A stretch of 62,466 bases of DNA, filler included, from Sluysia triapertura (taxonomy: Eukaryota), in NCBI GenBank assembly GCA_046118255.1. It is 5 parts of 5 records of this genome, joined end to end, with 100 filler letters (N's around TTAATTAATTAA, not from the genome) between each part and the next. Parts side by side here need not be neighbours in the genome. Positions count along the whole stretch, not along the records: positions 1 to 16,047 come from JBJNIA010212143.1; positions 16,148 to 27,491 come from JBJNIA010185735.1; positions 27,592 to 38,676 come from JBJNIA010189131.1; positions 38,777 to 49,654 come from JBJNIA010192163.1; positions 49,755 to 62,466 come from JBJNIA010087798.1. The stretch is one strand, 5' to 3'. The notes beneath the pieces were generated by a model. The model was not told the origin of the DNA. It ran no database searches and was given only the letters and a program-made list of their open reading frames with translations. A program made the translations under genes and the position numbers. Of this stretch, positions 5,421-54,078 are shown in pieces (the first letter of the stretch is position 1; each line of letters opens with the position of its first letter).

Positions 5421-5810
5421 TTATAAAGTCATTTTAAATATTATAAAAATCAAAATTGACAAAATGTTTTTAAACAAAAAATATACCTTATTCAAGTCTT
5501 TATTAACAAAGCAGTGTGGCCGATTCGAGCTGTAGTTAAAATTTTCCGGAATGGATACTAGTTCCTTACGACAATGAACGTAAGGACATCGATCACCATA
5601 TTTAACGCATTGTCCCCATGTGATAGGTTGAAATGGGCAAAGTACATATTTTGTAGATTTATATTTGTCATTCGGTTGAACCACATTACCAAGTTCATCG
5701 TTGCCAAGGGTATATTCGTGAGAAAAATCTTTATTCCCATTGTTCAAAATATTCTTGGTGGAAAATATAAGATTCGGATAATGAATATTTGATATACTGA
5801 CATACTTCAT
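5421..5810 (-). CDS. CCCH zinc-finger protein fragment (copy 1), possibly a pseudogene
   Basis: 'KYKSTKYVLCPFQPITWGQCVKYGDRCPYVH' is C-x9-C-x6-C-x3-H with a TIS11-like lead-in. Probable GT..AG intron ~5487-5409. Confidence 0.7.
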   Translation of the reverse strand: MKYVSISNIHYPNLIFSTKNILNNGNKDFSHEYTLGNDELGNVVQPNDKYKSTKYVLCPFQPITWGQCVKYGDRCPYVHCRKELVSIPENFNYSSNRPHCFVNKDLNKVYFLFKNILSILIFIIFKMTL

Positions 5811-7599
5811 TGTATCTAATGTTAAGCATCATTTACCTTGTGATTTACATGACGTAAATTGAATTGATATTAATTGTTTCTAACATGAGTATAAATATTC
5901 TTTGGAAAATCATATTTCATCAAAATCTTTATTTAATGAATAAACAACGTTGGGTTTCATACGATTTTACTACAGTATAATCTTCACTATATAAGATGGT
6001 GCTACATTCTTATCAGATCGTTGTTCTGATGATACATTAAGGTTTAACGGATTAAGAGTTTAATTTTTAAGGTTTAATTGATTTATACTGTCCGTTTTCT
6101 ATGAAGTCGAAAACATCTTTATCCTTATATTTTTCTTCCAATTGTTTTATTATTTTAATTATAGCATTCTTATATTCTTTTAGTTTAGGTAATAATTTCT
6201 TATATTCACTAAAATTTGTAAATGCATTAGATAAAAAGGCATAAACTATATTTTTCGTATCTAATTCTAATATTTCTTCATTTTCATCTATTATCTTGGT
6301 CAGATCTATAACATTTCTTTTAACGGGATTATTCATTATTATTACATATTCATTTTTTGTATTAGTTTCTTTAACACTTGTTTCAATATGTGGATTTTTA
6401 TTTAAGGTCCACTATATAATCGGGTTCCTCTATTGTATCATTGTTTTCAGCTATTTCATTACCATTTTTTATCGTTTCATTATCATTATTTTTTATTGTT
6501 TTCATGTCATTTTCATCCATTAATTGTCTTAAGAATGACTGGGGATTTTTATTTACATCTTCCTCCGATATGTCTTCAAATGCGTTTTCATATTCAACAG
6601 TTTTATTAACGGTAACAGCTTTTATTATTTTCTCGTGGTCTCCTAATCGTTAAGAAAATCTGTAGGAATTAAATATCTATTATCGTAAAATAAGTCCGCA
6701 TTCAAAATTGATGGGTCATTTGATTATATTATTTCAATGATATCTTGAACCAACGAAGTCACTGGTAATTCCATAAAAACATTAATAAGTCCTTTTAATG
6801 AAATGTTAATATTCATTAACATCCGCGGTTCTATTTTTCTTTCCATTAGTGCTCTTTTTTAATAAATTTCTTGCTTTATATTGATGAGGGTTATTAGCTT
6901 CACTTAATATAACCAAACTTGGTTTAATACTCTGTGCGTTAAACATTTAAATCCAAATTCAAAATTTTATCCAAATTTCTATCGATATCGTCATCATTTT
7001 CTAATTCAGTAAGGAATGCCTTTGTTTCTTCACACAATGTTGGTTCTGGAGTGTCTATTTCTCTGATTATTCTGGTCAACTGTTTGTTTTTCCTCTCATT
7101 ACCTAATATAATCATTGAGTCCAAATCCTCAATTATATCATTAACCAAATTATTTTTATTGATTGATTCCTCCAGTTGATTAATTCATTCTTCGTTTGTT
7201 ATATTATTGTCCTTTTCCCATCTTTTAATAATTGCTTCGACCTTTTTCCTTTCTTCCTCTATCTCTTGCATATTTATATTCTGTTGTTCTTTCACTACTT
7301 TCACTATTCTATTTTCATTCTCCATTTTTCGACAAAAGTAATTGATGAACGTTTCGTCCTCGTCTTGTTCTATTTTTGTTTTTCTTTCTTCGCGAATATC
7401 CATGCTATCTAATTTCGCTCTACGAAATTCACGTAACATTTCTTCCTCTTCATCTGTTAGTCTTCTTGGATATTTTTCATAACCAAAATCTTCATCGTAA
7501 TTGCAGTTGATTTGTCCCTTATCTTCGAATTTTACTCTTTTTGGAGAATTTTGTCTATTTCTATTAAAGTTTTGCTTGAAAGTTTCGGATTTCAGCCTG

Positions 7600-7641
7600 T
7601 GCAGTTACAAGCATAATGTTCTGATTTGTTACAATTATGAC
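7600..7641 (-). other. CCHC zinc knuckle of Gag, out of frame
   Basis: tgt cat aat tgt aac aaa tca gaa cat tat gct tgt aac tgc = CHNCNKSEHYACNC (CX2CX4HX4C), in a different frame from Gag and from the downstream extension. Confidence 0.85.
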
Positions 7642-8681
7642 ATTAATTCTCCTTCGGTATTAGTCCTTGTTTTGTAATTTGACCGAGATGGACTTTTGTT
7701 TCTATCAAAATTATTTCTTTGTCCATCATTGCTTGGCCATCTGGGCGATGGTCGCTGCTCGTAATCTCTGGACCCATTGTTAGAATAATTTCTGGCAAAT
7801 CCTCTTGTAGGTCTTGTATTTTGATAATTTCTGTCCGAATTTTGATAATCTCTTCCTGAATTTTGATAATTATTTCCTTGGTTTTGATAATTATTTCTTG
7901 AATTATAACTATTTAAACTTCTTTTATTTTCCCTAGATTTATATGTATCTAAATCACTATCTTCAAAATATTCTCTAGGTTTATTTTTAGGTGATTCACT
8001 CCTAACATTTTTAACCTTATCTATATAATTTATATTACCTTTTTCTTTTTGAGATTTTTCTGTTTCTTTTTGTGACCTTTCTATACCCCTTAAAGTGTTT
8101 ACTACTTCCTTAAATGGTTTATTATCTATTAAACTTACAAATACTTGCAATTCAGGTAGTAAACCGTTCTTAAGTTTATCTATTAACGTTGCTTCCCTCG
8201 TATCATTAGGTATTTTAGCCATTACTACCAAACATTTTAACGCGCAAGCAAATTCATAAACAGTTTCATCTTTTTGTTTCATCATTCTAAGATGATATTT
8301 ACCTGTGTCATTTAAAGCAATTTCTTCTGTAAACGCATTTAAAAATGTAATCCAATCTTGTTTTTTCTCTGGTTCAATTTCTTTGTACGTCTGGATCGCG
8401 ACGCCTGTCAAATAATTTTGAATTTGTTTAATTTTGTATATTTCTGACCAGCCGTTGACTTCTGTAACGTTGTCATATTCATAAAGAAAATTGCATAATT
8501 CTTCTTCATTTCCACTAAATTTCCTCATTTCTGGGAGGATAACAGCAGGTTTTATATTCAATGATAAATGCTTAATGCAGTCCTCTAAATCTTCAACAGT
8601 TTGTTCCATATTTAGGTTACTTTGCTTAGTTCTCCTAGTTCTACTTATTTTAATATTTTCTAAAGAATTGATTCTGCGCAA
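7635..8681 (-). CDS. Retrotransposon Gag (capsid-like), 348 aa
   Basis: 'KFSGNEEELCNFLYEYDNVTEVNGWSE...LTGVA', 'MKQKDETVYEFACALKCL' and 'LKNGLLPELQ' are typical retrotransposon-gag motifs. N/Q/R-rich tail. Confidence 0.85.
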   Translation of the reverse strand: MRRINSLENIKISRTRRTKQSNLNMEQTVEDLEDCIKHLSLNIKPAVILPEMRKFSGNEEELCNFLYEYDNVTEVNGWSEIYKIKQIQNYLTGVAIQTYKEIEPEKKQDWITFLNAFTEEIALNDTGKYHLRMMKQKDETVYEFACALKCLVVMAKIPNDTREATLIDKLKNGLLPELQVFVSLIDNKPFKEVVNTLRGIERSQKETEKSQKEKGNINYIDKVKNVRSESPKNKPREYFEDSDLDTYKSRENKRSLNSYNSRNNYQNQGNNYQNSGRDYQNSDRNYQNTRPTRGFARNYSNNGSRDYEQRPSPRWPSNDGQRNNFDRNKSPSRSNYKTRTNTEGELMS

Positions 8682-8831
8682 TCCGCTTCTATTTTCTTTG
8701 TCGTTTATGTCTATCCTTAAAAAACATCAAAAAATCCAGAAATAAAAATGCTTAAACTTAAATAGTTTAGCTACTTAAACTTAGACTTTTAGTCTTAAAT
8801 ATCAAAAGTCAATTGTTACGTCAATCGTTAG

Positions 8832-8849
8832 GTCCCAATTCGGGCGCCA
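8832..8849 (-). promoter_or_regulatory. Primer binding site, tRNA-Lys type
   Basis: The minus strand reads TGGCGCCCGAATTGGGAC, 16/18 identical to the tRNA-Lys3 PBS TGGCGCCCGAACAGGGAC, and lies upstream of gag. Confidence 0.85.
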
Positions 8850-8908
8850 AATAATTGTTCAGTATTTACTTTACTTTTATCTTAATGAACAGTTATAATT
8901 ATTTTATC

Positions 8909-8960
8909 GGGTCCGCCTATAATCTAAGTTTTATATCTCACGGAAGACTTAGTTATAGGA
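8909..8960. other. Conserved U5-region hairpin of the gypsy LTR
   Basis: CCTATAATCTAAGTT...GACTTAGTTATAGG inverted repeat; near-identical at 30131-30181. Confidence 0.7.
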
Positions 8961-9152
8961 AATAATGTCAATGCTACGAAAAGATAATCTTAAACTTGAT
9001 GCACGATTTGCTGATTCAAAAAGAATTCAATCACTAGTAGAGGGTCTGTTGCTTTATTAACGAAGTATTTTTACTTAGTTACAAAAACGCTATTAACACT
9101 CTAATATATGTATTAAACAAAATGAGAATAAAGATACAAAAATTAAATATGG

Positions 9153-9155
<3 letters not shown>

Positions 9156-9185: not shown

Positions 9186-9188
<3 letters not shown>

Positions 9189-10021
9189 TACAAAAGCTTG
9201 GATTTCTCCAAGGTTTTAATATAGATGAAATTAAAATTAAATTAGCGAATGCTTGGGTTTCGAAATTTTATTGATTTTAGGTCTGATTTTGATACAAAAA
9301 TATTATTGTACAAATCCTAATAGCAAATGCTTACTAATTTTGGATCATAACAGCAAAATTGCATTTTCAATAAATCCAATAAACTTCAATTTTTTACAAA
9401 AAAATTCTGCAATGGATTAGCTTCGTTTACTGTAAACTATTACTTAAATTTTTCAACTAGTAGAATCTCTTCAAGAGAGCGTATTAATTTAAGATTTATA
9501 AGAATGTTTATTTTCTTGTGTGTTTTTCAAGAATTGTTTTACCTTTTATATACTTTTAGAGTTATTGATAAAACCCGAAAATATTCTTTATTATTTAATG
9601 AAAAATTTAAAATAAAAATTAATAATTATTTGTACCGCAGATTTTAAGATAAAAATTAATCTATTTAGTTAAGTCAATTTGTACTTTATTCTTTTGATTA
9701 ACTACTGCAATTTTTTGAACTTGGATTATTTGATTAAATAATGATTAATTGATAAATCTTTTGAAATAATAATTATATAATTATCTTTTTAATTAAACAA
9801 ATAATTAATAATTTAATTATTATGACCCAAAATTTTCAGTATTTTTTTAAAATTTCTTAATATTTTCATAATTTCTTAATATTTACAGATATATTTCAAG
9901 GATGAAACCTTATCTTTTAAAGAACTTAAATAAATGATAAAAGGTACGATCAAAAAGGATCCGTTCATATACGAAGCGAAATAATAATTATAAGATGTTG
10001 TATTGTTCAAAATTACAATAC

Positions 10022-10520
10022 GTCACATTACACTAAAAATAACAATTCTACAACATCTAAATCATTTATTTCATCAAAAATCATTAAAATCGTAATTTAA
10101 ATTTAAACATAATAATAATAATTTAAGTGGCATTTCTCTTAACACTTTTAACGTCATCAAATATCCCTTACAATTTCTCTTTTCTCCACTTTTATTATTA
10201 TCCTTCCATTTTCTCATTTTATTAGAATTCATTTTACTCGAACACATAAATTCTCATCAACAATCATTATATGACAAAGAATTATATGCAGGCATTAAAT
10301 CTATGCAAAGAACATTAAGAACAAATTTTATTCTAAAGAAAAGAAGTTTTATTTCAAGGATAAAGATAAAGAAATATGTTAAGAAAAAGAACTAATTTTA
10401 AAAAGAATAAAGAAAGGTGTAAAGATTTTTGTGTTTTATTTACTTTTATTATTATTATTATTTTCATTTCTATTATTATTAATAGTATTAATAATACTAT
10501 TATTCTTATTAATTTTAATT
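10022..10520 (+). repeat. Repeat family C head ((T)GTCACA...)
   Basis: Matches the reverse complement of ~34560-34855 ('tcaaaaatcattaaaatcgtaatttaaattt' vs 'tcaaaaatcattacaattgtaattcaaattc'). Confidence 0.6.
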
Positions 10521-10531
10521 ATCATTATTAT

Positions 10532-10670
10532 TGTTGGGATTGTCCAACTTTGGATTACGAGACGAGTAAAAGACATATAGAATTACAAGTGAAGGAAGAA
10601 TTGATGAGAAGTGATAGATGAAGTATTATAAATGTCAAAGGTCAATTAAATATAATAACATTACAACAAA
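10532..10670 (+). repeat. Repeat family A head (TGTTGGGATTGTCC...)
   Basis: Near-identical to 62348-62450 and similar to the termini at 19259 (+), 13453 (-) and 29508 (-). Confidence 0.8.
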
Positions 10671-11508: not shown

Positions 11509-11603
11509 AAACGGCTGGCCCTCGCTGGTAAGTCCAGTACGTTGGTGAACTCACAATATCTTAAATCAACTTTTATTCTATTCATGTAACATTATTTCTC
11601 ACA
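11509..11603 (+). repeat. Family B LTR-like 3' end with splice-donor hairpin (copy 1)
   Basis: ACGGCTGGCCCTCGCTGGTAAGTCCAGTACGTTGGTGAACTCAC...TCTCACA; also at 21343-21438 (-), 32284-32374, 50056-50161 and ~51546-51635 (-). Confidence 0.8.
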
Positions 11604-11609
11604 ATATTG

Positions 11610-13453
11610 ATAACTTTCACCTAAAATTAAGTTCTTAAAATCAAATCAAAAATAAGGAACTTATTTACTATTAAATAAAAAGCAAATTAAAATTTATTGT
11701 TATTAGTATGACAAGATAACTAAAATGACAAAATTAACAATAGAGTTTATAATAATATTAAGAGTACTCAATCTAACTAAAATAACCAGGAGTGTCCCAA
11801 CAAACACTAACAATATCAATATTTATAAAGTTAATTATAATTATGCTACTTAAATATTTTTAGTTAACGTAACCAAGAGTAATCACGATTATAATAAAAA
11901 TTGTTGGGCAGAGATCCTTTCTAAAACTTAACAGTAATATCTAAAGTAGTAATATTTAATGTTTCGATAAAATAAATTTCATATGGTGTTTCCCACAAAA
12001 CTAAAATAAAATAATACAACTTACAATAAAAGTAGCACAATATTAACTTATATTAAAATTATCTTCCCTTTTATAAAATCAAAAATAAAATTAAAATAAA
12101 ATCAATTAATTACCTTATTTTAATTTTAAAATAATAAAATAACAAAAATAAAAAATAAATAAGAACATTACCCTATGCATGGATCTTAACTGGATAATTG
12201 CATAATTGTGTCATTGTTGTGTGATAAAAATTTAGAAATCTTTATTTTATACTAACTTAACATCCAATGAATTCCCAGTCTCACAACCAAACACTCTCTA
12301 ACACAAATCATCCATACGTTTTTGAGAATCAAACCGACAATAACAACTTTGACAACTACATGGTATGGTCTGTCAAACTTCATTAGGTACAAAACATAGA
12401 TATCTCATTTATTATCAACCATCATTTCCTTTTACTCTACTCAATCTACTTTTACTTGAATTACTTCTCATGTTAAAATATTATTAACATACATAAAAAT
12501 AATGAATTTAATTTCACTTTCTATTATTTTTCTACTTTTCACACCAAATTTTCTAATGAAAAATGTTTTAAGATTCTTATTCTCAAACGAACCATTTTAC
12601 AAGCATTTCGAACTCACTTACAGATTCTCCTCTTTCATAGCAATCATCTCATATTCCATTCGTCTAATTTTCATTACCCTAAGTACTAAAAATTCAACAT
12701 TCCATAATTAAAAATTAATTAAAATTTGACTTTGCTCATTATTAAAGCTTTCCTCACATGAACTCGGTCAAACCACATCTACATCGAAAGGTCTTTTCAA
12801 AACAAATACGTACACAGTTTCGTATTTAACATAGCATTCCGCATTCAAAAGTTATTCACAAAAACTTAATTTTTCTTAATTAAATTAATTAAGATTTTTA
12901 ATTAATTAATCTATTTTTAGACTTATTCTTATTTTATGTTTAAAGGTTTTATTAAGGTTCCAAGGCTTTCTAGTAATTTATAAAGCATTAAGGAGGCTCT
13001 AGATGTTTTCACCTTCACCTCTCTGATTCCTTTTTCTATTTCTTCATGTTTATTATTACCACATTAAACTTATTTTTATTATTTTGAACCAAGATTTTAT
13101 TTCTCTAACATTTTGAAAATTTTATAGACTTTATAATATTACTCGAAGAACTATGATGCTTATCAAGGTTTCCAGAATTCTTAAAGGTTAATAGAGTGTT
13201 AGATGACCTCAAAATTAATAAATTCAAAGGTGTTCTAATACCTTCATAAGTTTTTTAAGTCCTCTTCAGGTATTTGGAATGTCAAGGTATTCATTAGCTG
13301 TTAACACTATTATAGATGTTTTATTTTTCATGATTCTTATTCCAACAGTGTTTATCATGTTCAATTCATTACTTTGTATCAGTTTTTCCTTCATTTTATG
13401 ACTTTATATATTTCTCACTCATCTTCAGATCCATATTTGGGTAATCCCAAAAC
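11610..13453 (-). repeat. Repeat family A, ~1.9 kb non-coding dispersed repeat (possibly a long LTR)
   Basis: Colinear with 19259-21340 (inverted) and ~27900-29508, sharing blocks such as 'ttctcctctttcatagcaatc' and 'gcattcaaaagttattca'. No ORF is conserved between copies. Confidence 0.85.
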
Positions 13454-19258: not shown

Positions 19259-21340
19259 AGTTGGTATTCCTAATTGTGAATCAGGAAATAAGGGAGAAAC
19301 ATATAGAGCTATAAAATGAAGAGAGAACTGGTATAAATTCATGGATTAAGCATTATAAATATTGTCGAGAAAAGAATCATCATGAAAATAAAAACATTTA
19401 TAATAATTTTAACATCTAAAGAATACCTTGACATTCCAAAGACCTATATGAGGTGTTGAGACCTTGTGGAAGCTTGAAAAGGATTTAGAGGGCCATGAGG
19501 GCGTTGAGGTACCTTTGGGTTTATGAACCTTGAGATCATCTGAGACTTTATTAACCTTTAATCATCCTTGAAACCTTGATAAGCATTTAAGATCTTCGAG
19601 TGATGTTTAAAATATTTGAGAATTAAAATCATTGTTTAAAATAATAAAGATAAGTTTAATATGGTAATTATTAACATGAAGAACAAGAAAAATGAGTCAG
19701 AAAAGTGAAGGTGAAAACATATAGAGCCTCCTGAATGCCTTATTAATTACTAAATAACCCTGGAACCTTAATAAAACCTTTAAACATAAATAAAACTAAG
19801 TCAAAAAATAGATTAATTAATTAAAATCTTAATTAAGAAAAAGTACGTTTTTATGAATAACTTTTGAATGCGGAATGCTATGTTGAATTTGAAACTGTGT
19901 GTGCATTTGTTTTGAAAAGACTTTTCAATGAAGGTATGGTTAGACAGATTTCATGCAAGGAAAGCCTTAATATTGAGCAAAGTCAAATTTTAATTAATTT
20001 TTAATTATGGAATGTTGGATTTTTAATACTTAGAGTGATGAACATGTGATAAATGGATTGCTATGAAAGAGGAGAATCTATTGGTGAACTCAAAGTGTTT
20101 GTAAAATGGTTTATTTGAGAATAAGAAGCTTAAAACATTTTTCATTAGAAACTTGGGTGTGAAAAACTAGAAAACGATTAAATTCTGAAAACTAAAAGTA
20201 AATTATTTATTTTTTATGTATGTTAACAATAATAATGATTTTTATTTTAATGGAGAAGTAATTTAAGTAAAAATAGATTGAGTAGAGTAAATAAAAATGA
20301 TGGTTGATAATAAATCAGATTTCTAAGCTTGACAGACCGTATCATGTAATCGTCAAAGTTGTTGTTGTCGGTCTGATTCTCAAAGAGGTTTGGATGATTT
20401 TTGTGAGAGAGTGTTTGATTGTGAGATTTGGAATTGATTGGATGACGAGAGAGTATAAAATATAGATTTCTAACACACAAGAACAGCAATAACAGAATTA
20501 TGTATTTATTCAGTGAAGATCTATGCATAGAGTAAAGTTTTTAATTTTTTATTCATTTATTTATTTATTATTTTGTCAAAATAATATAAATAATTAACTT
20601 TATTTTAATTTGAGTGATTTTAATATAAGCTAATGGCCTGTTATTTTTAGTTAATTTTAGCTGTTACTAAAATAATTTTCAGAGAGACTCCCTACGCAAA
20701 TTTTTGTTAAGACCATATTTGATTTTTAGTTATTTTTAAGGTAATTAATTGAGAAACATTTTACCTAATATTTGTTAAAGATTCTTTTTAGATTATATTT
20801 GATTTTCAGCTATTTTATAAGGTGAATTGAGACAAATTCCCCATGCAATTTATTCTACCAAAATATTAAGTATTTTATCTTTATAAATTACTGTTAAGTT
20901 TTTCTTTAAAATTATTATTACCAAAGAATTTTATTGTAATCTTAATCACTCGTTGTTACGTTGACCAAACGTATTTAAATAACATAATTACTATTAATTT
21001 TCTAGATATTGATATTATTAGTGTCTGTTCCGTCACTCCTGGTTGCTTTGTCTTAATTAGATTGTAATATCCTTGATTTTATTGTAAACGCGATTGTTAT
21101 TTTTGTCATTTTAGTTGTTCTTAGTATTTACTAAAGATTCTTCTTGATAATAAATTATATTACGTTTTTTTGTTTAAGAGTACATTATTGTCTTAGTTTT
21201 GATTTGATTTTTAAGAACTTAAATTTCGGATAATAGTTATTAATATTATAAAAGATCGTTGCAAAATTATACTTGATATACTGACTATTTAAATTATTAA
21301 GGTTCCTTTAAGCTAACCAAGTTAATATGGAGTTGTAATA
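19259..21340 (+). repeat. Repeat family A copy
   Basis: Inverted homologue of 11610-13453. Confidence 0.85.
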
Positions 21341-21342
21341 AC

Positions 21343-21438
21343 TGTGAGAATAAAAGAAAAGAGAAAAGTTTATTTAAAACTTATTGTGAGTTCACCAACG
21401 TACTGGACTTACCAGCGAGGGCCAGCCGTTGGATTTTT
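21343..21438 (-). repeat. Family B LTR-like 3' end with hairpin (copy 2)
   Basis: Hairpin core identical to copy 1; ends TCTCACA(G). Confidence 0.8.
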
Positions 21439-24400
21439 AATGAGTAAAAGTTTAACTAAATTTGCTTAACAACGTAAATCAATGTTAGTTATATATCTTA
21501 CACTTATCTCGCTTCTGGAGTTTATTTTCCAAAAAATTACTTATTAAATATTAGAAATTAAAATGAATTGCTCACATGAAGAGGTATACTCTTCGGTATT
21601 CAAAAAATATTAAAAATTTAAATAAGGTTATGTTACACAGAATCCCGTTACATGGGATCGATTGAATGATTTTACGTTCTAGAATTATATTCTAGTATTT
21701 GAAATCAAATGAGGAATTTTAAATCAAATAAAATAATTTAAGTATATAAAAATTTATTAATACATAAATTATTAACACAATAATATAATAATAATGCAGA
21801 ATTTTGCCTATAACTAGGTATAACTAGTTATGTTAAATTTAGAATTTTATAAAATGATTTTTCTTTTAACCCTTATATGGTTCATTTAAGAATTTAAGAT
21901 TTTAACCTGGATTTTACTTATGATAACATTTTATCAAAAACTTAATAAAAATTATACTAACGTGACTTTTTAAAGATTTTTCAAGTAACTGCGTGACTAA
22001 AAATTTGTAGAGATAATTGTGAAAATAAATGTACAAAAACTTTTAAAAAACTTTTTTGTGAAAACTTTGTGTGAATTATTGTAAATTGCTTTATCTTATA
22101 TAATGTTTTAACCTGACCTTGAGAGGTCAGATTAAAACAAATTAAAAATTTTATAAATAATAATTTTTGTGTAGTCACGTTATTATAATATTTAATAAAG
22201 TTAACAAAATTTCAAAATTAAAAATATTTAAATATTTAAAATTAACAAAAATTCAAAATTAAAAATATTAAAAATATAACGTACTTTGAATCTAATAACA
22301 CAAATTTAGTTCCAAAAATTTTTAAAATAAATAATTATCAATTTATAAATTATCAATAAATGATTATCAATTTATCATAAATTATCAATATAACACAAAA
22401 ATGATTCATCTTCACATATTCATCACATATAATAAAATATCATTCATAACATAATTAATAAAATTTTAAACACCCGATAAAACAATTTGTTGAAAAAGTG
22501 TAAAGTGTAAACATTTTGTAATTTACATTTTGTAAATATTGCTAAATATTTCTATAATTCTAAAATGCTAAAATAAATAACATTTTTAATTTTTAATATT
22601 AGTTTCTAATTATAATAATATTAACTACTTTATTTCTGTTTTATTTTACAAATTTTATTGATATACATATTTAAGTAAAATTTAAAAAATTAAAAAGTGT
22701 CTAAATAGTTGTTATTAATTATTAAAACTTTATTATTATTATTATTGTCATTATTTATTTTCAAAATATTATAATATTAACTTAAAAAGTATTTAATTAT
22801 CAAATTAGTCAGTATAAGTTAATTAGTCATCATAAATTAAAGTTAAGTACAAGTTAGTAAAGCCGTTGTAAGAGCTATAAGTAGCAAGCTAATTTTGAGA
22901 TTAATTTAGACACAGTTCTTATAAAGTTATCGATCGAAATATCACAGTCATTTCACAAAAAAGTGTATTTCGCAAGGTAAAACAATATTTTTTACGAGTT
23001 CAAAAATCTGACAATATTGTTAATCAATTACAAATTAATAATTCAATAACTTTGAAAGCATCATAATTTTGAAAATGAGTGAAACAAGAAAAGATAAAAT
23101 TCGTCATTTAATATCTTTTGAAATTACATTTTTTTGATTTGAAGTAAAGTTTAAAGTCGTTAGTTTAAATTTATTAAGAATTAGTTAATTTAATTAAAAC
23201 AAATAAATCATTACTTAAATTATTTGTTAATCTAATAACATTCGGTTCGCGTTTAAAGGATCTGGCATAAGAGATATAACTGTTGATTTTATATTATCAA
23301 AGTATTTGATAAATTAAATTTATATTGATATTATTACTGATTATTGATTTTTAAATATAGTTTTGTGGTAATATTTTAGTGTAATAAGCTATTTATTAAT
23401 ATTGAATCTTTAATAAGCTATTTATTGATAATAAATTTTTTGATCAAGATTTTTAAAACATTGTTAAAACACTCAATTTAAATTAAGTGAATATAACTCC
23501 TTACGTACTAGTAAAATACAGAGTTATAAAAACCATAAAAATCTAAGAAAACATAATAATATTGAATAAATAATATAAGAACAAATAATATAAGAATAAA
23601 TAATATAAAATTCGTTGTAAATTCAAGATCATATGGTAAAGGTATTTTTGGAGGTATTTTTAGTATTCGTAGTATTTAGTATTTTATAATTAGATAAAAA
23701 AATTAATGTATTTCGAATTGAAATTATCATTAAATAAAAATTTTTATTTTTAAATATTGTAAAATAAAATTATTAAAATATTAAATATTTGAAATTATTA
23801 TTTATTTAAAAAATTTATTATTATAATTTTTATCGTAAAATAAATTATTATTAACAAATAAATATTTAAAATTTATAACAAATAATTATTAAAAAATTTT
23901 ATTATTAGTATTATTAAAACAAAATCACCAAAACTACTGTTGGTGTACAATAAAAAAATTATATAAAGAATAAAAAATTCTTGTTTTGTCACACCAAAAA
24001 AGGAAAAAAAAATTATTACTAATATAAATTTTTTTAATCGTTTGGAGAAAATTATAAGAAAAGAAGATATCTACATTTAAGAAGAAGATATTTATATTTA
24101 AGAAGAATAAGATATAAAAATTTTTGGTTTATTATTGTTTTATAATAATGGTTTATTGAAAAAATAGAAAAATCAGAGAAAATTCATTTAAAACATTTAC
24201 AAACTGATATACATTCTTATATCCTTCTGTTCATTATAAATTTAACAAATGGTTCTAGCAAGTCTTATTGTTTTTTGTAATTATTATTTTCACATATTTA
24301 ACATAATAATATAATATAATTTAACATAACATAACATAATATTTTAATAATATTATTAAATTTTTGTTCAAATTATTGTTCTTTTAAATTAAAAATTTTA

Positions 24401-24915: not shown

Positions 24916-26477
24916 TATTTAATCAGGTTCGATAATAATATTATATTATCATGAATGCTTTATACTTATACTGCCACTGATGACAAATAAAATGAGATTT
25001 GGTGAAAATTTAATAAGATGTTTTGTCGTACAAATTAATTAAAAAGTAAAACATTTGTAATTTTTTCATATTTTTGTATAGTATATTAGTCGATCTCTGG
25101 ACTACTACAAAGTCGCTATATAATTTGTACAATGTTTTGTTGTATTCTAAATAAAAGAAAATTATTTACAGGTTCCCACAAAACAAATGTGGTTAGCAAA
25201 GATTGGTGCGCTGTTAATCGAATAAAAAGCGGAATAACTTCAAGTAATTTGAGAATATATAATGAACATTTTACTATTGACAAGCTAAATCTGGATTCAA
25301 ATCATATTGATTATGTACGAACATGGTCAACTAAAAGAAGGATTGAAATAAAACTTAGAAATCTGTACAGGAGTTCGAAGTTAAAGTTAAATAATTATAG
25401 CAAAAAAATATTAATTAAATCTTTTCTTTGAGTTTATAACCACATTTTATCGCTTCATTGTATCGGTGAAAAGATAATGCAAAGATAAGAATCAAGTTGG
25501 ATCAATTAAAGCAGCAAATAAAGAAGTCGAGAAGATTCAACGGATGTGATGTGTTGATTTGGTGATGAAATTTACATAGATAACTCATATAAACCGATTT
25601 CTACTTCTTACAGACATCACCGAACAAGGTCGAGTGTTCATCTTTCAAAAAGTAGGAATATGATAGCAGTTGAAACAAAAACAGCAGTTTATGTTAGTGT
25701 AACCTTAGTGAATTCTAAGTAAATTATCTTATTTTTAGTATAATTGTTCTAAAATTAATACAATTGTTGATTATTTTATTAGGATAGAATTCGAGTTAAT
25801 TATGCGGCGTCTAACATTAAGTAATGCTAAATTCCATCGACATTGTAAAAAAAGAGTTTTAAGTTGTGCGGAATGTCAGTTGAAATAAACTCCACAATTG
25901 ATAAGGTTCGGTATTCAGATTGAAATAAATTTGTGCCGAAGTTCAATGCTAAATTATAATCTAATCAGAATTATAAGCAATAACCAATTAAAACAACGAA
26001 AAATATACGTCAAGTTTTAAATTTAATATGATTAAAGTATATTGCTGAATATATTCAATAACAAAGTATATGGTTATTTCAATATTAAAATCACGAAAAG
26101 TTATTTTTATCAAGAACGTTCAGATAATTAAATTATAGAAATCAATTACATCATAAGTAACAAAACTCTTTTTAAAAATGTCATGCAAAAAATAAAGTCA
26201 CAGTCAATCGTAATCAAATTCACTTTACTTAACAACCTGATTTCGCTAAGATCAACATCATCATATCATTTAACAGCATTATAATTTATTCGATATATAC
26301 TCATTTTTTGCACAAAATTTCAAAGACGTAAAAAGGCATTCTTCATAATCTGATGCATTTAAATGTATTATATCAGATTATATTTCCAGCTTCATATAAT
26401 AAATTTATTAAGATTTACTGGAACTGAATAATTTATTGAAGTTAACTTATTTCAGTGACATTGTTGTAGGTATTGTG

Positions 26478-26615
26478 TGTTGCATAATCGATATTATTCA
26501 AAATCCAAGATGTTTAGCTCCTTGTCGGCAACAGGTATGGGTAAATTAATACTTAATCATTTTGTTAATAATTTTAAACAAGAGAATGTCGAAAATGTAA
26601 ATTTACACATCCAAG
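26478..26615 (+). pseudogene. Degenerate CCCH-like relic (possible copy 4)
   Basis: 'NRYYSKSKMFSSLSAT' | gtatgg..intron-like segment with damaged acceptor | 'GECRKCKFTHP'; TGEC matches copy 3. Lies within a decayed coding-like region ~25130-26780. Confidence 0.3.
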
Positions 26616-27491
26616 TTAACATTGATTATGCATTATCATTTTACTAGAATAGTTTGAAGTTAATTAAAAATAAAAAAGTTATAATTGAATTGAATCAGAA
26701 AACGAATTTTTACTTGCATTTGATAATAATCCTGATATGTCCAACAAAACTGAACAAGATGAAAATTCGGACACAGATACATGTAAATAATAAAAGTTTA
26801 ATAAATATTGTAAATAATAAAATTTTAATAAATATTTTTATGTAAATAATTTGTAAAATAATAAAAATTAAAAAATATTTATTGTAAATAATAAAAGTTT
26901 TAAAATTTTTAGTTTTATCTATTTCAATAATTATGAGTAATAATTAAATTAGTTTTTAATAATTATGATTAATAATTAAATTAGTTTTATGATTAATAAT
27001 TAGTTTACAATAATAAAGGAAGTCAATATTTATTCATTTATCAATAATTATTTATATCATTTTTGAAAAACTACTAATATTTATTTATATTATTAAACAT
27101 CTAAAGGAAATAGCTGATTTAATAAAGGAAATAAGCGCGTATATAAAGTAAGCCATTCAAAGTAATAGATGATAAATTAATTTGAAGAATTTTAGTCAAG
27201 ATTCAAAAATCGTGTATACTTTACGAAAATAGTTTGCGGAATTGGAAGAATAGAATACAATCGAATCAATTTAAATTTTGAAGAAAACATCATTCGCGGA
27301 TATTCAGTTGAATTATCTATTATTGGAGATTAATTGGCAAATTGGAAATTAATTTGAAGAAAAGTATTGATCACCGATTTCGTGGATTCAAATTAGACTG
27401 CTCAGTTGCTGGAGAATTAATTAATTATCGATTTCCGTGTATTTAAGTAAGCTTATTTCCTGTAGGTTTTCGACCCTAATAAAAGAGGTCT

Positions 27492-27591: not shown

Positions 27592-27899
27592 ATTGTTGTT
27601 GTCATAAAGAATAATTTTTAAAGTGTAAATATTTTGATTATACAAAAATATATCGAGATTCTGAAGTTATTCAATTATTGGGTTTTGATTAGTAACTTGC
27701 GAAATAAGACACAACATAACCAACTTTGTTAATCAACTGTTATATGTATTTGTTGCGTCTTTGAAAATTTTTAAATTATTTAAAATAAATATCAATTTAA
27801 TTAACTTAAAAAGAATCTCAATTATATAAGTATTCACCAAATCAAATATAAATTTTCAATAACTCTCTTATTTAATATCAATAATTATTCACCTCAAAA

Positions 27900-31100: not shown

Positions 31101-32283
31101 ACTTTTGTATTAAAAATAGATAATTCTTTTTTGTACTGTAAAATGTAATGTCATCAACACAAAATATTGAAGGTCAAATATCGAAGTCAGATTAAATTAA
31201 ATTATATCGATTAAACATTACATTAAATTATATCAATTAAATCACATTAAATTATATTTAAGTTAAGAAAATATAAATCATAATTTGGAAATAATTAATT
31301 TAATTATATGGAATAACTAATTTATGTGGAATAATTAATTTAAATTATTTGAAAAATTTAAGAAAATTATTTTGGAAAATTTATAAATTAAAGAATCAAC
31401 GATTTGAAACATCATCCAGGTTAATATTATTATTGTTAATATTATTATCATTTTATTATTGATATTCATGTAAATATTATTATTAAAATATCATAAATAT
31501 TATTAAAATTAAAATTCCTACTTGTTTTACTTATCTGGTCATCTTGTTTTACTTATATTCAAGGACATTCTAATTAGATATAAAAACCCTACAATTAAGC
31601 ACTACTACACACAATATTTTCACACAATTTTGCATTCAAGATTTTTCAAATCTCGATATACCATACCAAGTGATTTTTTAGAAGGAGTTCTATAACTGCA
31701 AATTCAATTATATTCACAATTTTTACAAGTCTTTGCGATTTTTGGAAAGAATTATCCAGTTGTATCGAAGTTTCAAAGGAAGTCTTGTTTTTTCGTTAGT
31801 TTTTACTATAAGTTTCTCGGCAACATATAAAGTTGCTTAACCAAAATCTGACTTAAACTTTATTTTAATTTTCCCGCTATCGTTTATAGATAGCGTATTA
31901 AAATCATTACAAAATTTGTTTTTAGATTATTCGTGAAATAATCTCCTCTAACATTTTTATTATTTTATTATAACCTATTTGATTATTATATTTGTATACT
32001 CATATTCTATTAATTAATAAAGTTTTTCTTACTTTAACATTTTATTATAATTTTAATATTAAATTACGTATCGGTTCCTTCGTGAATCTTATTAAACTCA
32101 TTAAAAGGTTCACTTTCATTGAACCTCATTAAAATACCGAAGTTAAAAAAGGTTCGTATAAGCGAATCTAATTAAAATCACTTTATATTATTTTTAAAAT
32201 AATTAAAATTTGTAAAATTCCATTTGACCTCCTAAAATATCAATTATTAAATTATTAAATTTGATTTTTATTAAATAACTTTA

Positions 32284-32374
32284 AAAATCCAACGGTTGGC
32301 CATTCAGTTTGTAAGTCCAATACGTTAGTGGACTCACCTCTTATAGTTTTTATTCACACGTAAATTTCTCACAG
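32284..32374 (+). repeat. Family B LTR-like 3' end with hairpin (copy 3), abutting the hAT relic
   Basis: CCAACGGTTGGCCATTCAGTTTGTAAGTCCAATACGTTAGTGGACTCAC...TCTCACAG. Upstream 'aaggttc...gaacc..attaaa' repeats are shared with 49880-49960. Confidence 0.75.
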
Positions 32375-33845
32375 CAATTTAAAAAATTCAACATTCGGAA
32401 TTACAGTGAAAACAATCATTTATAAGGTCAAATATTTTTCTAGGACAGGTACTTCCAACAAGGTACTGAAATCTGTCGGTGGCTCAAGATCTGAATTACG
32501 GAAGCATGTAAAAAACAAAAAACTTTAAAACATTTGATAAAAAGGAAATCTGCCGATGAAGTTATAGCCAAATTGGCTTGCAAAGATGGTTTAAGTTATC
32601 GGCAATTTGCTTGCAGTGAATTCATTCAAAGTAATTTGATGAAAGATGTGTACGACAAAAAGCCGCTAACTTCTGTAAATGGCTTGAAAAATTGAATACT
32701 TAACTTTTATGAAATAAAAAAACTGAATTAACAGAATATTTTTCTAAGCAGATTAAGGCCAGGATTCGTTATTCAATTTCACTGGACGAGTATGCATCAT
32801 CCTAGAATATTCGGTTTATGAATATTAATGTGCACGATATGATTAAGCACTGATTTCTTGGTTTAGTTCACTTTTGTAAGTCATTGAAAAGTTATAGAAT
32901 CACAGATATCGTGAATTTGGATTGAATTTAAATTGCGATATCGCCGGAGCAACATCCAAAGGTGCTTCTGTCATGATCAAATTTGGCAAGGAAAATGAAT
33001 TTGCTCATGAACTCTGTTTAGCCAATTGTTTTCGTTTAACAGTATGATATCTTTTGTACAAAGAACAAAAAACTTGAAAAAGATAATGAAAATGCACTTT
33101 GAAAGATAATCAAGAAATTATTGAAAACTGGAACGATTACGATAGCCCCTTAGACATGGCTTTTGACTCTGAAATAAATTGTAATTCTTTATATTAATGA
33201 ACCTTTTGGTGAAATAATTTCAAAAGTTAGAAGAATATGCAAAGTCATCTGCAAATAAAATCGCCATTGAAAAACGACTATTTGCAAGAAATATTTAAGA
33301 ATGAATCAAAAGGAAAAGAATTCAAACTTATGTTAGTCATTTCCACAAGATGGAATAGTATTATTACAATAATATATAAATTCATAGAATTATAATGTTG
33401 TATTCCTCGTTCTTTAAGAGTTTGTGAAATCGGTGAAACTATATCAGATGAGGAATTTGAATCTTTGGATGTTCTTCTAAACACACTCCGTCCTTTTGAA
33501 ATAGCTATTAAAGGGCTTTCACGAAAGTCGCTTCACTATTAAAAGGTGAAAATTCAGTTAAATCTATTTTGAAAGAATTAAATAGTCTCAGTTTCGTCTT
33601 AGGCACAGGACTAACGAAAAATTTGTTTGAAAGGTACAATTCGCGACGGATGAATGAATTTATCTCGAAGATCCCGATAAAGTAAGAAAAACTATGTGGG
33701 AGTATAGAACTCTGATACCATTTATTTGAAACTTTATAATTATTTAACTACTTAATTTATATGATCTTATTAAAAAATTGTAAATGTAAAACATAAAACA
33801 TATATTAACTAAAAATATGAAGAACTAAAATTTTCATTAAAATTT

Positions 33846-34199
33846 TTATTTAAGATACAATAAATAAAGTTGTTTAATTGCGATTGAATGTGCCATTGTA
33901 GGTATTTTACTTTGAGGACTGAACAAAATGCGATCTTGTTGGTTATTCGTAAATGCGTGGCAATTGATGTATGATTTTCCCAACTCTGGTATTGTTCGTA
34001 AACTTGACAGTAAGTCGTAGATTCGTTGACCATGATCATTGACATTTGGCTTGGAGTAAACAGAGCGTTGGAGATAAAAAGGCCCATGGGAATAGATACA
34101 TTTATAGCCGTATTTGATGCATTTGTCTGCACCATAATTACATAGTGCAATTTTATAATGTCGTGGATGGAATTTGTTTTCGATGTTTCTGATATTCAT
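33846..34199 (-). CDS. CCCH zinc-finger protein fragment (copy 2), inside the hAT insert
   Basis: 'RHYKIALCNYGADKCIKYGYKCIYSH' is C-x6-C-x6-C-x3-H. The downstream 'RIYDLLSSL' is shared with copy 3. Confidence 0.7.
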   Translation of the reverse strand: MNIRNIENKFHPRHYKIALCNYGADKCIKYGYKCIYSHGPFYLQRSVYSKPNVNDHGQRIYDLLSSLRTIPELGKSYINCHAFTNNQQDRILFSPQSKIPTMAHSIAIKQLYLLYLK

Positions 34200-34559
34200 A
34201 CGCGCGTATTATTGATTGTTTTCGCTTGTCATACTACTCGATCAGTACATTCGAAAGAACTTGCTTGTTACTAATTTGTTCAGTAGAAAAATTAGGCGTT
34301 TGCATTATAGTTGAAATTGAATGAGCAGTTCGTGCAAGGTTTAGAACAACACCGATGAGTATTATTTGAACTAGAAACATCTAATAAAACCGAAACATTC
34401 ATGATATCAATATTGGTTGTGGGCAACGATCTACATTGATGTTGAATATTGTGAATACTAATAATTAATAATGATAATAATAATGCTATTAATAAAATGA
34501 AATAAAATAATATTATAAAAAAATTAATAATAATAATAATAAAATAAAATAATAAATAA

Positions 34560-34855
34560 TAAAAACATAAAATAAAACAAATAAAAATGCATATATTTCT
34601 CTACAATTCTTTATCTTGACATGTTTCTTCATATTCTAATTAATAAAACTTGATTTTATTTATGGTTTTTGAATAATAAAGAAAATGTAAAAAGAGTTGA
34701 TGAAAGAATGTCTAAAGAAGATAATAACGTAGTTAAAGGTATTAAAAGAAATTTCATTTACATTATTGTTATATTTGAATTTGAATTACAATTGTAATGA
34801 TTTTTGAAGAAATAATAGCTTAAGTGTTACAATGATGTGAATTTTTATTGTGACA
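34560..34855 (-). repeat. Repeat family C head (TGTCACA...)
   Basis: Homologous to 10022 onward; begins at the junction with hAT sequence. Confidence 0.6.
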
Positions 34856-36455
34856 AAATGAGTTAAAGTTTTAAGTGATAGAGTTGCCCACCAGAAACTA
34901 ATTGCTCAACACTTTTTTTTGTCAAATTTATGAAACAATAAAGAGACTGGCGAAAGCAACTTTTAACAGGCTTTATCAATCTGACGATCTCCAAACATAA
35001 ACGGATAATAATAATGAATCAAATGATCCGATGTCTCATTGAAGTGGTTAACTAGAGTAAGAAATCCAATCCCACTTCTCTATTTACTATTGATTTAGAC
35101 AAGGACCTAAAGTTATCTGAAGCAACAGGGAAGTGATGTGAGCATTAAGAAAAGGTATACCGAAGCCTGTGCACAATTGTAGAATCTCAACAACAAGTGT
35201 AGAATCTCAAAGAGCTTTATCATCTGTAGGATATTTTTTAACAAAGATTCGTTCTCGGTTATTGCTTAAAACACTAGATGTTTTGACCTTTTTGAAGTCA
35301 TACTTTGCAAATATTGAGAAATAAAGAACCGTTATTCTTTAAACAGGCGAAAAATATTTTTTAAATACTAAATATAACATTTTTATATTTTTAGTCTTAT
35401 TACTACATTGAAGTTAGTTTATTTAATTAAAGTGTGTATAACAGAAAACAATTTATACAAAAGTCCAGTAGGCACTTTATTTATAAAAGTGTTCGGAAAT
35501 CGGTAAAAACCGAGATTTAATTTTTCTGGCGGTAATTTACCGGGTACAAAATTTTCGGTACTTTGCAAACTCTAATACGAACTACCTGATAAATGTCGAT
35601 CGAGGTATATTATTTGGTGTAAAATGAATAAAAATGAAAATTAATTACAAATATTGACATTATCATAAAAATAGATTATATAACGAAATATCTAGTGAAA
35701 AGTTATGCAAAATTTTACGAATCATAAATAAATGTTTATAGCAACTACAAAGTAACATTTCGAACAGGAAGAGCATTGTACCAGTAAGTCCAAAAAACCA
35801 TTCTCGGAAGTAGCATACTGTTGCAGTACAATAAATCCTAGGAATATGAATATAAATAACCACGTATTAAAGTAAAAAATAAAAATCTTATGTAGATTAA
35901 ATCTAATCAATCAAATATAAACAAAAATTAGAATAGTTTGAATAGTCAAAGCTTGAAGTTAAAATAATGTAATAAATATCTCAAATTTGGTTTATATGAA
36001 AATGTGGAAAGATAAATTTCCACTGATATATCTATGAATCTCCTAATTCTGATGATAGTAGAAAGTCTATAAATTTATATCTATTTGAACATATATACTT
36101 CATTTTTATTGCACAATAATCTATTATAAATAAAATTAATGCACAAACGCCTTGCCAGAGCATACCCGAAAATTTTTTTGTTTTCATCTTGTTAATTCCG
36201 AACGATTATCGTTTTATTTCAAAATATTTATTCAAGCCCTGTAAATGTTCAAATGATTTAATATATTTAAATTTATTCTAAATTATAAAACAAACAGAAA
36301 AATTAGAAAAAATTAGGAATCAAGAAATTTATTAGTAGTTCATTAGTATTTCATAATTATGTAATATATACATGTATTCTCATTAATTTAAAAATAATTT
36401 GGTACTAAAATTTATTATTGATTAATTAATATTGTTATTAATTTATAAATCTAAC

Positions 36456-38776: not shown

Positions 38777-39106
38777 CTTATTTGTTACAGGAGTGCCAAC
38801 AATACGTTGTAAGACGCTTACTGTAACCGAACCCTGCTAAAAAATATTTTGCCGTAGGTTAAGTGTTAGAAAAAACCACAGCAATATCATTAACCGTGAT
38901 TTTAATTCTTGAACATTTTAAAGGTTCCAAACATTTTACAAAGTTACTCGAATATCTTAAAAGTTTGTCAAGGTCTCAAAGTTTCCAAAAGATTAACAAA
39001 GTTTAAATAATCCCAAGGTTCAGAAATTCAAGGGTATCTTCATACTTCAAGACATATTTCCAAGACTTACTTAAACCTTCATAAGAGTCTCAATACACTA
39101 CAAAGG

Positions 39107-50055: not shown

Positions 50056-50161
50056 AAATCCAACGATTGGCCGTTAATTCAGTAGGTCCAATACGTTGGT
50101 GGATTCACCAGTTTTAATTTTTTATTTTGTACATTTTTCGTGACATCTACTTTTCTTACAG
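50056..50161 (+). repeat. Family B LTR-like 3' end with hairpin (copy 4)
   Basis: CCAACGATTGGCCGTTAATTCAGTAGGTCCAATACGTTGGTGGATTCAC...CTTACA, followed by a PBS. Confidence 0.75.
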
Positions 50162-51545: not shown

Positions 51546-51635
51546 TAGGTGAGATAAATATAGTAGAATAAAGATTAAAAGCGTGAGTTCATCAACGTAC
51601 TTGGACTTACCTGTTAGGGCCAACCGTTGGATTTT
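51546..51635 (-). repeat. Family B hairpin (copy 5)
   Basis: The minus strand reads CCAACGGTTGGCCCTAACAGGTAAGTCCAAGTACGTTGATGAACTCAC...TCTCACCTAG. Confidence 0.75.
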
Positions 51636-53481
51636 TTATGCAATATGTCACTTAAGGTATAACCTTGGCTAAATTTCCTCTTAATTGTGATTGAAACGTC
51701 CTAAATCGTCAAGAATGTTTGAATGTTTATTATAAATATTTTATATAAATCCTATTAAAAGGATTTTCAAAAAATCTTCTATTAATATTAAACAAAAAGG
51801 AATTAACTATTATAAAAATTTATTATAACAAAATGTAATAATTTTTACAACTCTTTAGGATATAAAATAATATATGATATAATATTACACTAAAGAATTA
51901 CTTAAAAATTCCTGATTTTTCTTTGTATTTTTTATAAATATTATTTTACAAAGGATCTATGAAAAGATCAAAATTAATAATTAATAAATTTGCGTTGATT
52001 TTACAAGATATTACAATAATAATATCATCTTTAACAAAAATAAACTAAAGTTAACAAAAGAAATTCAAAATTTTAATTTGGTCCACCAGAGTGTATCGAG
52101 CACAAAATCTTCTTATGTTGATTAATAAAATAGATTTAAAAATTTACTTAGACAATCAATTTATTGTGAGTATTGTAAAAATGTTCACTGTATATATATT
52201 CTCTAGTGGATCGTCCTTGAAATTTTAATAAAAATTGATAAAAAATTAACAATAAATCAATAAAAAAAATCAATAAAATTAATAAATTAATAATAAAATT
52301 TTTAAAGTTAATGTTAAGAATTAATAAATAATTTATACATTTGACCAATTAATGTTTATATTGTGTTTATGAAATGTGAATAATAAATAATAGATTGTGT
52401 GTTATTGACAATATGAAATGTGATTTGTGTGTTATTGACATATTTATTGATTATACTATTTGTTATAGTTAAAATTTTTAATGGATTTTATAGTATTCTT
52501 AAGATACCAAAAATTATCCAATAATTTTATGAATATTATTTTCTTATTAATTAAAAGACTTGCAACATTCAACGATTTACAAGATTTCAATGTCGATTTT
52601 CTTTTGAATTATAAATGAAAAATAGTGTAATTAATTGTAGTAGTATTCTTGAAAATAACCTTTCTATATTCTTGTAAAGGTGTTATTTTAATTGTCATTA
52701 AGGTTTTATATCGGATTAAGAGCACTCGTAAAAATATACTTGAAAAACTACACTTGTTATGCTTGTGTTGAAATTTATTTATGTGGGTCTTATAATTTTA
52801 TCACTCTATTTCTATAGAATACAAACAAAAATACCAGATTTTATTTAGCAACATCATAGTTATATCAATGATGTTATATTAGTAAATAATAATACTTGAA
52901 ATTGCATTAAAGTAATATAATAATATTTCTTTTCTTTTAATTTCATTAATTAAATGGTAATTCTTTTAATAATTTCTTTATTCTTAAATCCAGTAAACCA
53001 AATATTATTAAATAATGACATAATTACAATTATACTACTATTATTTAATATCGAATTTGTTGGTTAAGAAAAGCTGTGATTTTTCGGTATTATTTTATTC
53101 TAGAATAATCATGCTTTATATTTAAATTCTCTTCTACGGAACATCCTTTTACGTACAAATCGGCACATGAATAATTAAAATATTTAAAATTTGTACCTAG
53201 AATGTTAATCTGTGTCATTCAAAAATGTGTCCTTGAGATGTGGTAATATGCGATTACAATTTATATTATATTTTAATTTATGATTATATGAGATAGAAAA
53301 ATCGGTTAACAAAATTAATTTTCTTAGATTTACAACAATTAAAGAAAATTCAAAATTAATATTATAATTATAATTTATTATGATTCTTATTACTAAGGTA
53401 AACTCAAACTTATTAAATATTAGATAAACATAATAATAATAACTAAATTGATTTATTTTATTTAAATTTTCGTAAAAACAG

Positions 53482-54078
53482 TTATTTTGGATATAGTTTA
53501 GATATTTCTTGAGTATGACTGGACATAGCTATGATTGGAATTCTAAAAAAATGTAAATATACAAATTGATTTGTACCAGAGTAAATTAAATTAAATTTCA
53601 AACTTACTTTTAAGTTTTTCTGGCTTGCCGGATCAAATGATGTAACTGCCAAGCTTGATAATATAGCATTAATTCTGTCATGGCAAGTACTAAAGTTCGA
53701 TGTAGAACCCACATCACTAATTTCATAAACTTGATGAAAGTATTTGCAATTTCTACCATATCGGGAACATTCGCCAGTCTGTGTAGTTCCATAAACAAAA
53801 AGCATTCTTGTAGTATTTGTCTTCATTAGCAAAAGTTTGAACATTATTGTGGAAAGGTTTTCTGTTTTTATAGAAGGATTTTGAATAGATATTTCTTAAT
53901 TTTACTTTGGACATGTACTTCACTATTGGTGTTACTTTATTTGTCATGACGCGTGAATCGACATCTACTATTTTTGTACTAATTTGTAAAGAGCTGAACA
54001 TATATTAATAGAAATTTCTATAAGTTGAACATCTACTGGCATACTTGATCTGTGAACACTTTTATTTTCATTTTCCAT
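53482..54078 (-). pseudogene. CCCH zinc-finger gene (copy 3), frameshifted
   Basis: 'KYYKNAFCLWNY' plus a one-base shift plus 'QTGECSRYGRNCKYFH' gives C-x8-C-x6-C-x3-H. 'DRINAILSSL' follows. Retained GTAAG...TTTAG intron ~53607-53543. Confidence 0.75.

Follow-up and report, generated by a model that had tools for sequence, protein, structure and literature searches.

Lineage-specific groups of CCCH zinc-finger proteins are common. In this study, three short CCCH-coding sequences (copies 1 to 3) from a 62,466-nucleotide stretch of Sluysia triapertura DNA (assembly GCA_046118255.1; five contigs joined by spacers, hereafter called the window) are compared with the closest described systems. TIS11 fingers have the spacing CX8CX5CX3H, and in TIS11d each finger grips one UAUU by means of backbone contacts and two aromatic residues, small sequence changes being able to alter the specificity (PMC1635273); the two tandem fingers of TIS11 proteins, 18 residues apart, are both required for AU-rich binding (PMC12710939). 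Unkempt comprises six tandem fingers and a RING domain (PMC4358403), fingers 1 and 3 of Muscleblind (MBNL) have the spacing CX7CX6CX3H (PMC4176163), and an analogy with the CCCH proteins of the nematode germline might be drawn (PMC9846511). With a probability of about 0.5, we consider the three sequences to be small CCCH genes with one finger each that make up an old set specific to the lineage, i.e., an orphan family in which at least copies 2 and 3 would be related.

A six-frame scan of the window with the motif C-x-[KR]-Y-G-x-x-C-x-[YF]-x-H returned three matches, all on the minus strand and each on a different contig (5574-5609, 34086-34121, and 53734-53769), compared with none in 60 shuffled windows. 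This agrees with a previous reading of the same DNA made without database searches (the sequence-only reading), which had recognized three clear motifs, there called paralogues, on three contigs; the RIxx[LI]LSSL motif that it had assigned to copies 2 and 3 was likewise found in both. The copies are as follows.

5421 to 5810, minus strand: copy 1, an intact open reading frame (ORF) of 129 amino acids with a single C-x9-C-x6-C-x3-H finger at 5574-5639.
33846 to 34199, minus strand: copy 2, an intact ORF of 117 amino acids with a single C-x6-C-x6-C-x3-H finger at 34086-34142, followed by RIYDLLSSL at 33999-34025.
53482 to 53950, minus strand: copy 3, a C-x8-C-x6-C-x3-H finger at 53734-53797 in a broken frame, with RINAILSSL at 53650-53676.

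All three copies retain four zinc ligands, the Tyr in the Y-G pair, and the aromatic residue between Cys3 and His, and the three Cys and one His with the terminal C-x3-H spacing lie in frame in copies 1 and 2 and across a frameshift in copy 3, while the gap between Cys1 and Cys2 is unequal (9, 6, and 8 residues in copies 1, 2, and 3, respectively). The x6 spacing between Cys2 and Cys3 had been regarded as atypical; it is not, because it is normal in finger 3 of Unkempt and in fingers 1 and 3 of MBNL. In particular, the best PDB match of copy 2 is finger 3 of Unkempt (5ELH chain A, residues 87 to 133; E value, 2.4e-4, over 44 residues), which, like the copies, presents the C-x6-C-x3-H spacing and a Y-K lead-in and has 5 of 10 post-His residues in common with copy 2. 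However, Unkempt finger 3 has N-G where all three copies have Y-G, and, unlike the six-finger array plus RING of Unkempt, the copies carry one finger each; no CCCH family was matched upstream of copy 2 in any of the three frames, and no further fingers were found anywhere in the window. Moreover, Unkempt is missing from the PDB lists (E value of 10 or less) of copies 1 and 3, the post-His segment of finger 3 being encountered for copy 2.

With TIS11/ZFP36 (1RGO and 1M9O) and the nematode-type tandem fingers (6NZL), the copies share the Tyr of the Y-G pair, the aromatic between Cys3 and His, and a Y-K-like lead-in. Both base-stacking aromatics of TIS11 are present in all three copies, and the E-L/I pair after the His is a TIS11-like feature of copies 1 and 3; in copy 1, the stretch after the finger has E at His+4, L at +5, and Y at +14. 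On the other hand, the TIS11/ZFP36 spacing does not occur in the copies (x9/x6, x6/x6, and x8/x6), only Y-K is kept of the (R/K)YKTEL lead-in, and no other C-x4..7-C-x3-H that could serve as a TIS11-style second finger lies near any copy; for copy 1, a second finger was sought also in a downstream exon and was not found. None of the 18 fingers in the TIS11-like protein hits has the x6 spacing. The parallel with TIS11 proteins and AU-rich RNA drawn in the sequence-only reading fails, because those proteins require two x8/x5 fingers. As for Muscleblind, it pairs CX7CX6CX3H with CX7CX4CX3H and has a Cys1-Cys2 gap of 7, whereas the copies are single fingers without an x4 partner and with other gaps, and its PDB matches are weak (E values of 0.2 to 2).

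When a profile of the three copies was compared with PDB chains, TIS11-type chains came first (E values of 0.001 to 0.03), followed by MBNL (0.2 to 1) and, last, Unkempt (2.3 to 4.4). This order speaks against an Unkempt origin, as do the Y-G pair of all three copies and the TIS11-like residues that copies 1 and 3 carry behind the His. In the Pfam scans, which covered sets of 16, 10, 8, and 3 chosen stretches of the window, the best family was the Unkempt-like PF25427 for all three copies (E values of 0.0019 for copy 1, 1.1e-4 for copy 2, and 0.0022 for the read-through of copy 3), with best scores of 18.5, 22.4, and 18.3 bits, under the cut-off of 31.1 bits; the copy 3 read-through also matched PF16131 (Torus; E value, 0.0028). 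A single-sequence structure model of copy 2 had a mean predicted local distance difference test score of 37, too poor for a structure search.

The coding nature of the three sequences was evaluated with 20,000 nucleotide shuffles, in which the open frame recurred 0 times for copy 1, 2 times for copy 2, and 9 times for the part of copy 3 after the frameshift; the CCCH frames are far more open than expected by chance, while the relic of a hAT-like transposase around copy 2 (described below) has a longest open stretch of 66 codons. An in-frame stop just upstream of copy 2 suggests that its N terminus has been lost. Copy 3 had been described as one ORF from 53482 to 54078, but the frame opened at 54078 ends in a stop after about 36 codons, and a +1 frameshift, with one extra base near 53776-53779, falls between Cys1 and Cys2. 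Copy 3 is either a pseudogene or the product of an assembly error; an intron is disfavored, the unspliced frame being collinear with copy 2.

Judging from the sequences, it is probable that copy 2 and copy 3 are paralogues. They are collinear past the finger to the stop over about 80 residues (global protein comparison, p 0.012), and their DNA outside the finger gave a global p of 0.01 against both shuffles and real tiles and a p of 0.016 in a banded 9-mer test. Copy 1 appears to be linked to them solely via the finger, as a more distant relative. Local DNA matches between copies were not significant in eight of nine pair tests, the exception (copies 1 and 2; p 0.02) being the finger itself. 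Since the protein identity of copy 2 to the other two is 27% and 28% and synonymous sites are saturated, the copies would have split long ago and not by recent copying; if the homology is real, protein-level selection would have maintained it for a long time. Over 90 aligned codons, copies 2 and 3 have 24 residues in common, 20 of which are encoded by different codons.

Two further points in favor of the homology carry reservations. The identity of copies 2 and 3 is 0.33 at third codon positions versus 0.48 at positions 1 and 2, but saturated third positions are expected of unrelated sequences too, and a protein-guided alignment inflates positions 1 and 2. Similarly, leave-one-out profiles gave the omitted copy 17.3, 19.6, and 22.6 bits, compared with 9.4, 12.8, and 20.0 bits for the highest-scoring finger in each of three TIS11-like proteins (gaps of 7.9, 6.8, and 2.6 bits), but they were built from an alignment containing all three rows and are subject to alignment bias. 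Other results weigh against a common family. A local protein alignment of the tails of copies 2 and 3 gave a p of 0.23, none of the 12 protein tests outside the finger survived correction for 12 tests, and the upstream DNA of these two copies shows no likeness (p 0.43 to 0.72). Outside the finger, copy 1 is little supported (p 0.028 to 0.64). The best known matches also differ, being Unkempt for copy 2 and TIS11-like proteins for copy 1 and the finger of copy 3, and a tree of 47 columns, in which the comparators were 20 TIS11-like fingers and no Unkempt or MBNL rows, united all three copies in 14% of the bootstraps (approximately unbiased test, p 0.40), a result that neither establishes nor rejects a clade. 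Outside the finger, the pair formed by copies 2 and 3 would be the better supported, at an uncorrected p of about 0.01, and copy 1 is weakly attached.

A different element of the sequence-only reading, a possible fourth relic at about 26480-26615, turned out to be something else, which reduces the count from three or four copies to three.

26412 to 26698, plus strand: a broken copy of the NAA50 N-acetyltransferase gene, with a frameshift, a short deletion, and a stop.

This sequence matches PDB entry 3TFY in two frames (E values of 9.8e-7 and 0.0027), and the three-copy profile scores nothing there, so the CCCH relic was rejected; the case illustrates how a motif spotted by eye can mislabel a pseudogene. 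The NAA50 pseudogene suggests that decayed duplicates of host genes are common in this genome; by showing that such decayed copies occur, it is one of the points in favor of the old single-finger set.

According to the favored explanation, the copies would have persisted as real protein-coding genes long after they split and would now be partly decaying in a repeat-rich genome. A single insertion of a 1.15-kb piece opening with an old repeat may have brought copy 2 into the hAT relic, copy 3 would be a frameshifted paralogue, and copy 1 would be a more distant relative located beside, and not fused with, a gag relic. Of the previous interpretation, real CCCH coding sequence and the decay of some copies, as in the frameshifted copy 3, are supported. 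On the model of TIS11d, it is possible to hypothesize that the finger binds zinc and stacks its two aromatics on short single-stranded RNA; a lone finger would bind RNA weakly, because it would contact at most about 4 bases. Binding would then need a partner or an oligomer, for which, speculatively, the RIxx[LI]LSSL motif of copies 2 and 3 could be responsible. By the same analogy, the RNA specificity of a lone finger would be unpredictable, and an activity in AU-rich-element decay would not be implied for single-finger copies. The finger type and the x6 spacing are already known, and the likely outcome would be a modest addition, namely, an orphan group of CCCH proteins, with one finger each, in a lineage that evolves fast.

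Searches for relatives gave no close one. A full HMMER search with copy 2 returned five matches, namely, three multi-finger TIS11-like proteins and two repeat artifacts. Word-index protein searches with copy 2 were blank (0 of 21 candidates for the "longer" search and 0 of 220 for the alignment "near" search), but these blanks are weak, because a control search with CEP19, at the stricter E value of 1e-10, was equally blank (0 of 76). An exact look-up of window proteins in a protein collection found 0 of 6 (with guessed starts, one without Met). The atlas search gave no usable match for copy 2 and, for copy 1, CCCH clusters under 0.9 that are leads only; a metagenome scan gave two loci, an ordinary x8/x5 protein and a match antisense to a bacterial-type gene, and a viral scan gave 0 of 163.

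The genomic context of the copies was considered with reference to the following features.

33720 to 34875, minus strand: the insert of about 1.15 kb holding copy 2, around which the hAT frames stop and restart; its ends are approximate.
32250 to 33720, plus strand: the 5' part of the hAT-like transposase relic, with motifs recognized by eye and a longest open stretch of 66 codons.
34880 to 35320, plus strand: the C-terminal part of the same relic, matching PF05699 (Dimer_Tnp_hAT; E value, 0.12).
34454 to 34870, minus strand: a repeat head, starting near TGTCACA (34855), with an (ATT)n tract; it occupies the 5' end of the copy 2 insert.
33710 to 33720, minus strand: an 11-mer resembling a primer-binding site (PBS), with which the insert ends on its 3' side; the window contains no second copy, whether exact or with 1 mismatch.
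10005 to 10535, plus strand: a second repeat head with its (ATT)n tract, not followed by a CCCH ORF; another repeat family starts at the tract.
54783 to 55190, minus strand: an (ATT)n tract and a possible very old repeat head, about 0.8 to 1.2 kb upstream of copy 3.
7601 to 8849, minus strand: the 5' end of a long terminal repeat (LTR) retroelement, with a PBS at 8849, a gag-like ORF to 7638, and a CCHC knuckle in a shifted frame (7601-7642).

Copy 2 does lie between the body of a hAT relic and its C-terminal piece, as previously described, although PF05699 is matched only at an E value of 0.12 and the other motifs are presumably those of hAT; no hAT Pfam match was found in the three frames of the 5' part, and a PDB search with part of the relic gave no transposase. 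No convincing target-site duplication flanks the insert, the best direct repeat being 6 nucleotides and not flush with the ends, and for copies 1 and 3 no element ends are defined. The head before copy 2 is 67% identical (131 of 196 columns) to that at 10005-10440. TGTCACA and (ATT)n are present upstream of copies 2 and 3, as had been noted, but TGTCACA alone is at chance level (4 occurrences in the window versus about 4.7 expected from base composition), and the window holds seven (ATT)n tracts. The stretch before copy 3 compares with the repeat head at a pair p of 0.12 (58% identity, 56 of 96), is missed by nhmmer, and is the second-best non-self site among 3,508 tiles, within the background. 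A short inverted repeat with arms of about 11 bp was seen by eye at 54545-54615, in the spacer upstream of copy 3.

An unlikely alternative, which deserves consideration for its consequences, is that the CCCH ORF is a mobile element's own accessory gene, the copy 2 insert being a 5' LTR that opens with TGT and contains the (ATT)n tract and the CCCH ORF, with its PBS next, and copy 3 a far older LTR of this type; solo LTRs would have dispersed the gene, the product of which would bind RNA of the element or of the host. The repeat head has its 5' end exactly at one hAT junction and the PBS-like 11-mer, which we take to resemble a tRNA-iMet site, stands at the other (6 exact matches in 300 shuffled windows), copy 3 keeps the order of head, (ATT)n, and ORF, copy 1 is likewise in an LTR-element context, and the ORFs of an element too would show protein-level selection. 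Conversely, the best copy of the head (10005) is not followed by a finger, neither copy 1 nor copy 3 has a PBS-like site after it on its strand, the head before copy 3 is not significant, and the LTR upstream of copy 1 does not resemble the head (p 0.32 and 1.0). As for the insert itself, the TGT start is present, but the 11-mer is not directly preceded by CA and may instead be hAT sequence, and there are no internal retroelement region after it, no paired LTR, and no target-site duplication. The LTR-borne ORF retains some probability because the insert opens with a repeat and closes at the PBS-like 11-mer. In more specific versions, which we rate a little below the general one and hence as doubtful, an LTR lineage would carry the single-CCCH gene inside the LTR, behind (ATT)n, with protein-level selection across old subfamilies; equally doubtful is that such a gene, scattered by solo or truncated LTRs, possibly counters host silencing or acts on the RNA of the element. 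An RNA-binding accessory protein encoded by a retrotransposon would be a weightier result than an orphan group, and no published example of a retrotransposon with a CCCH ORF was found in the available portions of the open-licence literature.

Copy 1 had been reported as fused behind a truncated gypsy element. It does follow a gag-like ORF on the same strand (Arc capsid in Pfam; E value, 0.062), but a fusion is not supported, the two being parted by 1.8 kb of disrupted sequence with five stops in the 85 codons before the copy 1 frame. The gypsy label is without tool support, because no pol domain was found before copy 1 (no protease, reverse transcriptase, or integrase match in the three frames of 5830-7650). 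The PBS at 8849 is, we assume, of the tRNA-Lys type; a 3' LTR was sought downstream of copy 1 and was not found. The LTR end preceding the gag-like ORF (8850-9000) has a second copy at 30050-30210 on the minus strand (96% over 52 bp). Downstream of the gag knuckle, in the position expected for pol, the minus strand presents a long acidic, Asn-rich, decayed coding-like stretch (6070-7604) with no informative Pfam match, possibly representing a non-autonomous LTR element. A degenerate 91-bp repeat, whose frames yield a recurring RSNCI-like peptide, is located at 4700-4960 on the plus strand.

It is also improbable, in our estimation, that the copies form no single family and are independent pieces of different host CCCH genes, surviving as pseudogene debris in the way of the NAA50 copy, with copy 2 deriving from Unkempt finger 3, copies 1 and 3 from TIS11- or Muscleblind-like genes, and the likeness being caused by x6 ligands and aromatics. 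The match of copy 2 to Unkempt over 44 residues, post-His segment included, would be so explained, as would the TIS11-like post-His residues of copies 1 and 3 with their weak TIS11/MBNL chain matches, the unequal Cys1-Cys2 gaps, and the unrecovered monophyly; splice-like GT..AG pairs also occur after the fingers of copies 1 and 3. However, no neighboring Unkempt or TIS11 finger lies upstream of copy 2 (none in three frames) or elsewhere in the window, the collinearity of copies 2 and 3 extends over about 80 residues as far as the stop, and C-x-[KR]-Y-G is common to all three copies, whereas Unkempt finger 3 has N-G and all 18 TIS11-like fingers lack x6.

The closeness of the copies to mobile DNA tells little, because at least 45% of window positions have a repeat or relic at a distance of 500 bp or less; repeats or relics make up at least 22% of the window, in a tally that includes the relics marked near the copies, and 21% of positions have an (ATT)n tract at 900 bp or less. 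Very unlikely, finally, is the original proposal that TIS11-like host regulators were multiplied as passive transposon cargo, with many copies genome-wide: three copies on three contigs in 62 kb, copy 2 inside a mobile insert, and a disabled copy 3 would be in line with it, but the DNA pair tests are null apart from the finger of copies 1 and 2, synonymous sites are saturated, the three contexts differ with only copy 2 clearly within a mobile insert, such proximity is common in the window, the TIS11 features are missing, and the fourth copy is NAA50. Recent passive copying of the three sequences fits poorly with the pair tests and the saturated sites.

The remaining observations concern the rest of the window, the G+C content of which is 24.7%. 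An unclassified repeat family of about 2 kb occurs at 11510-13450, 19261-21442, the region of 27592-29506, 38892-39049, and 62345-62466, with short ends at 32281-32355, 50056-50122, and 51566-51640; its long copies are 73 to 79% identical, and one end begins at the (ATT)n tract, at 10533. What we take to be another small decayed hAT-like fragment was recognized by eye at 3700-4100 on the plus strand. Genes for a MutS-domain protein, CEP19, and a mitochondrial carrier were identified, and the mitochondrial carrier gene contains a GT-AG intron of 34 nucleotides (59670-59703, minus strand), suggesting that introns are very short in this organism.

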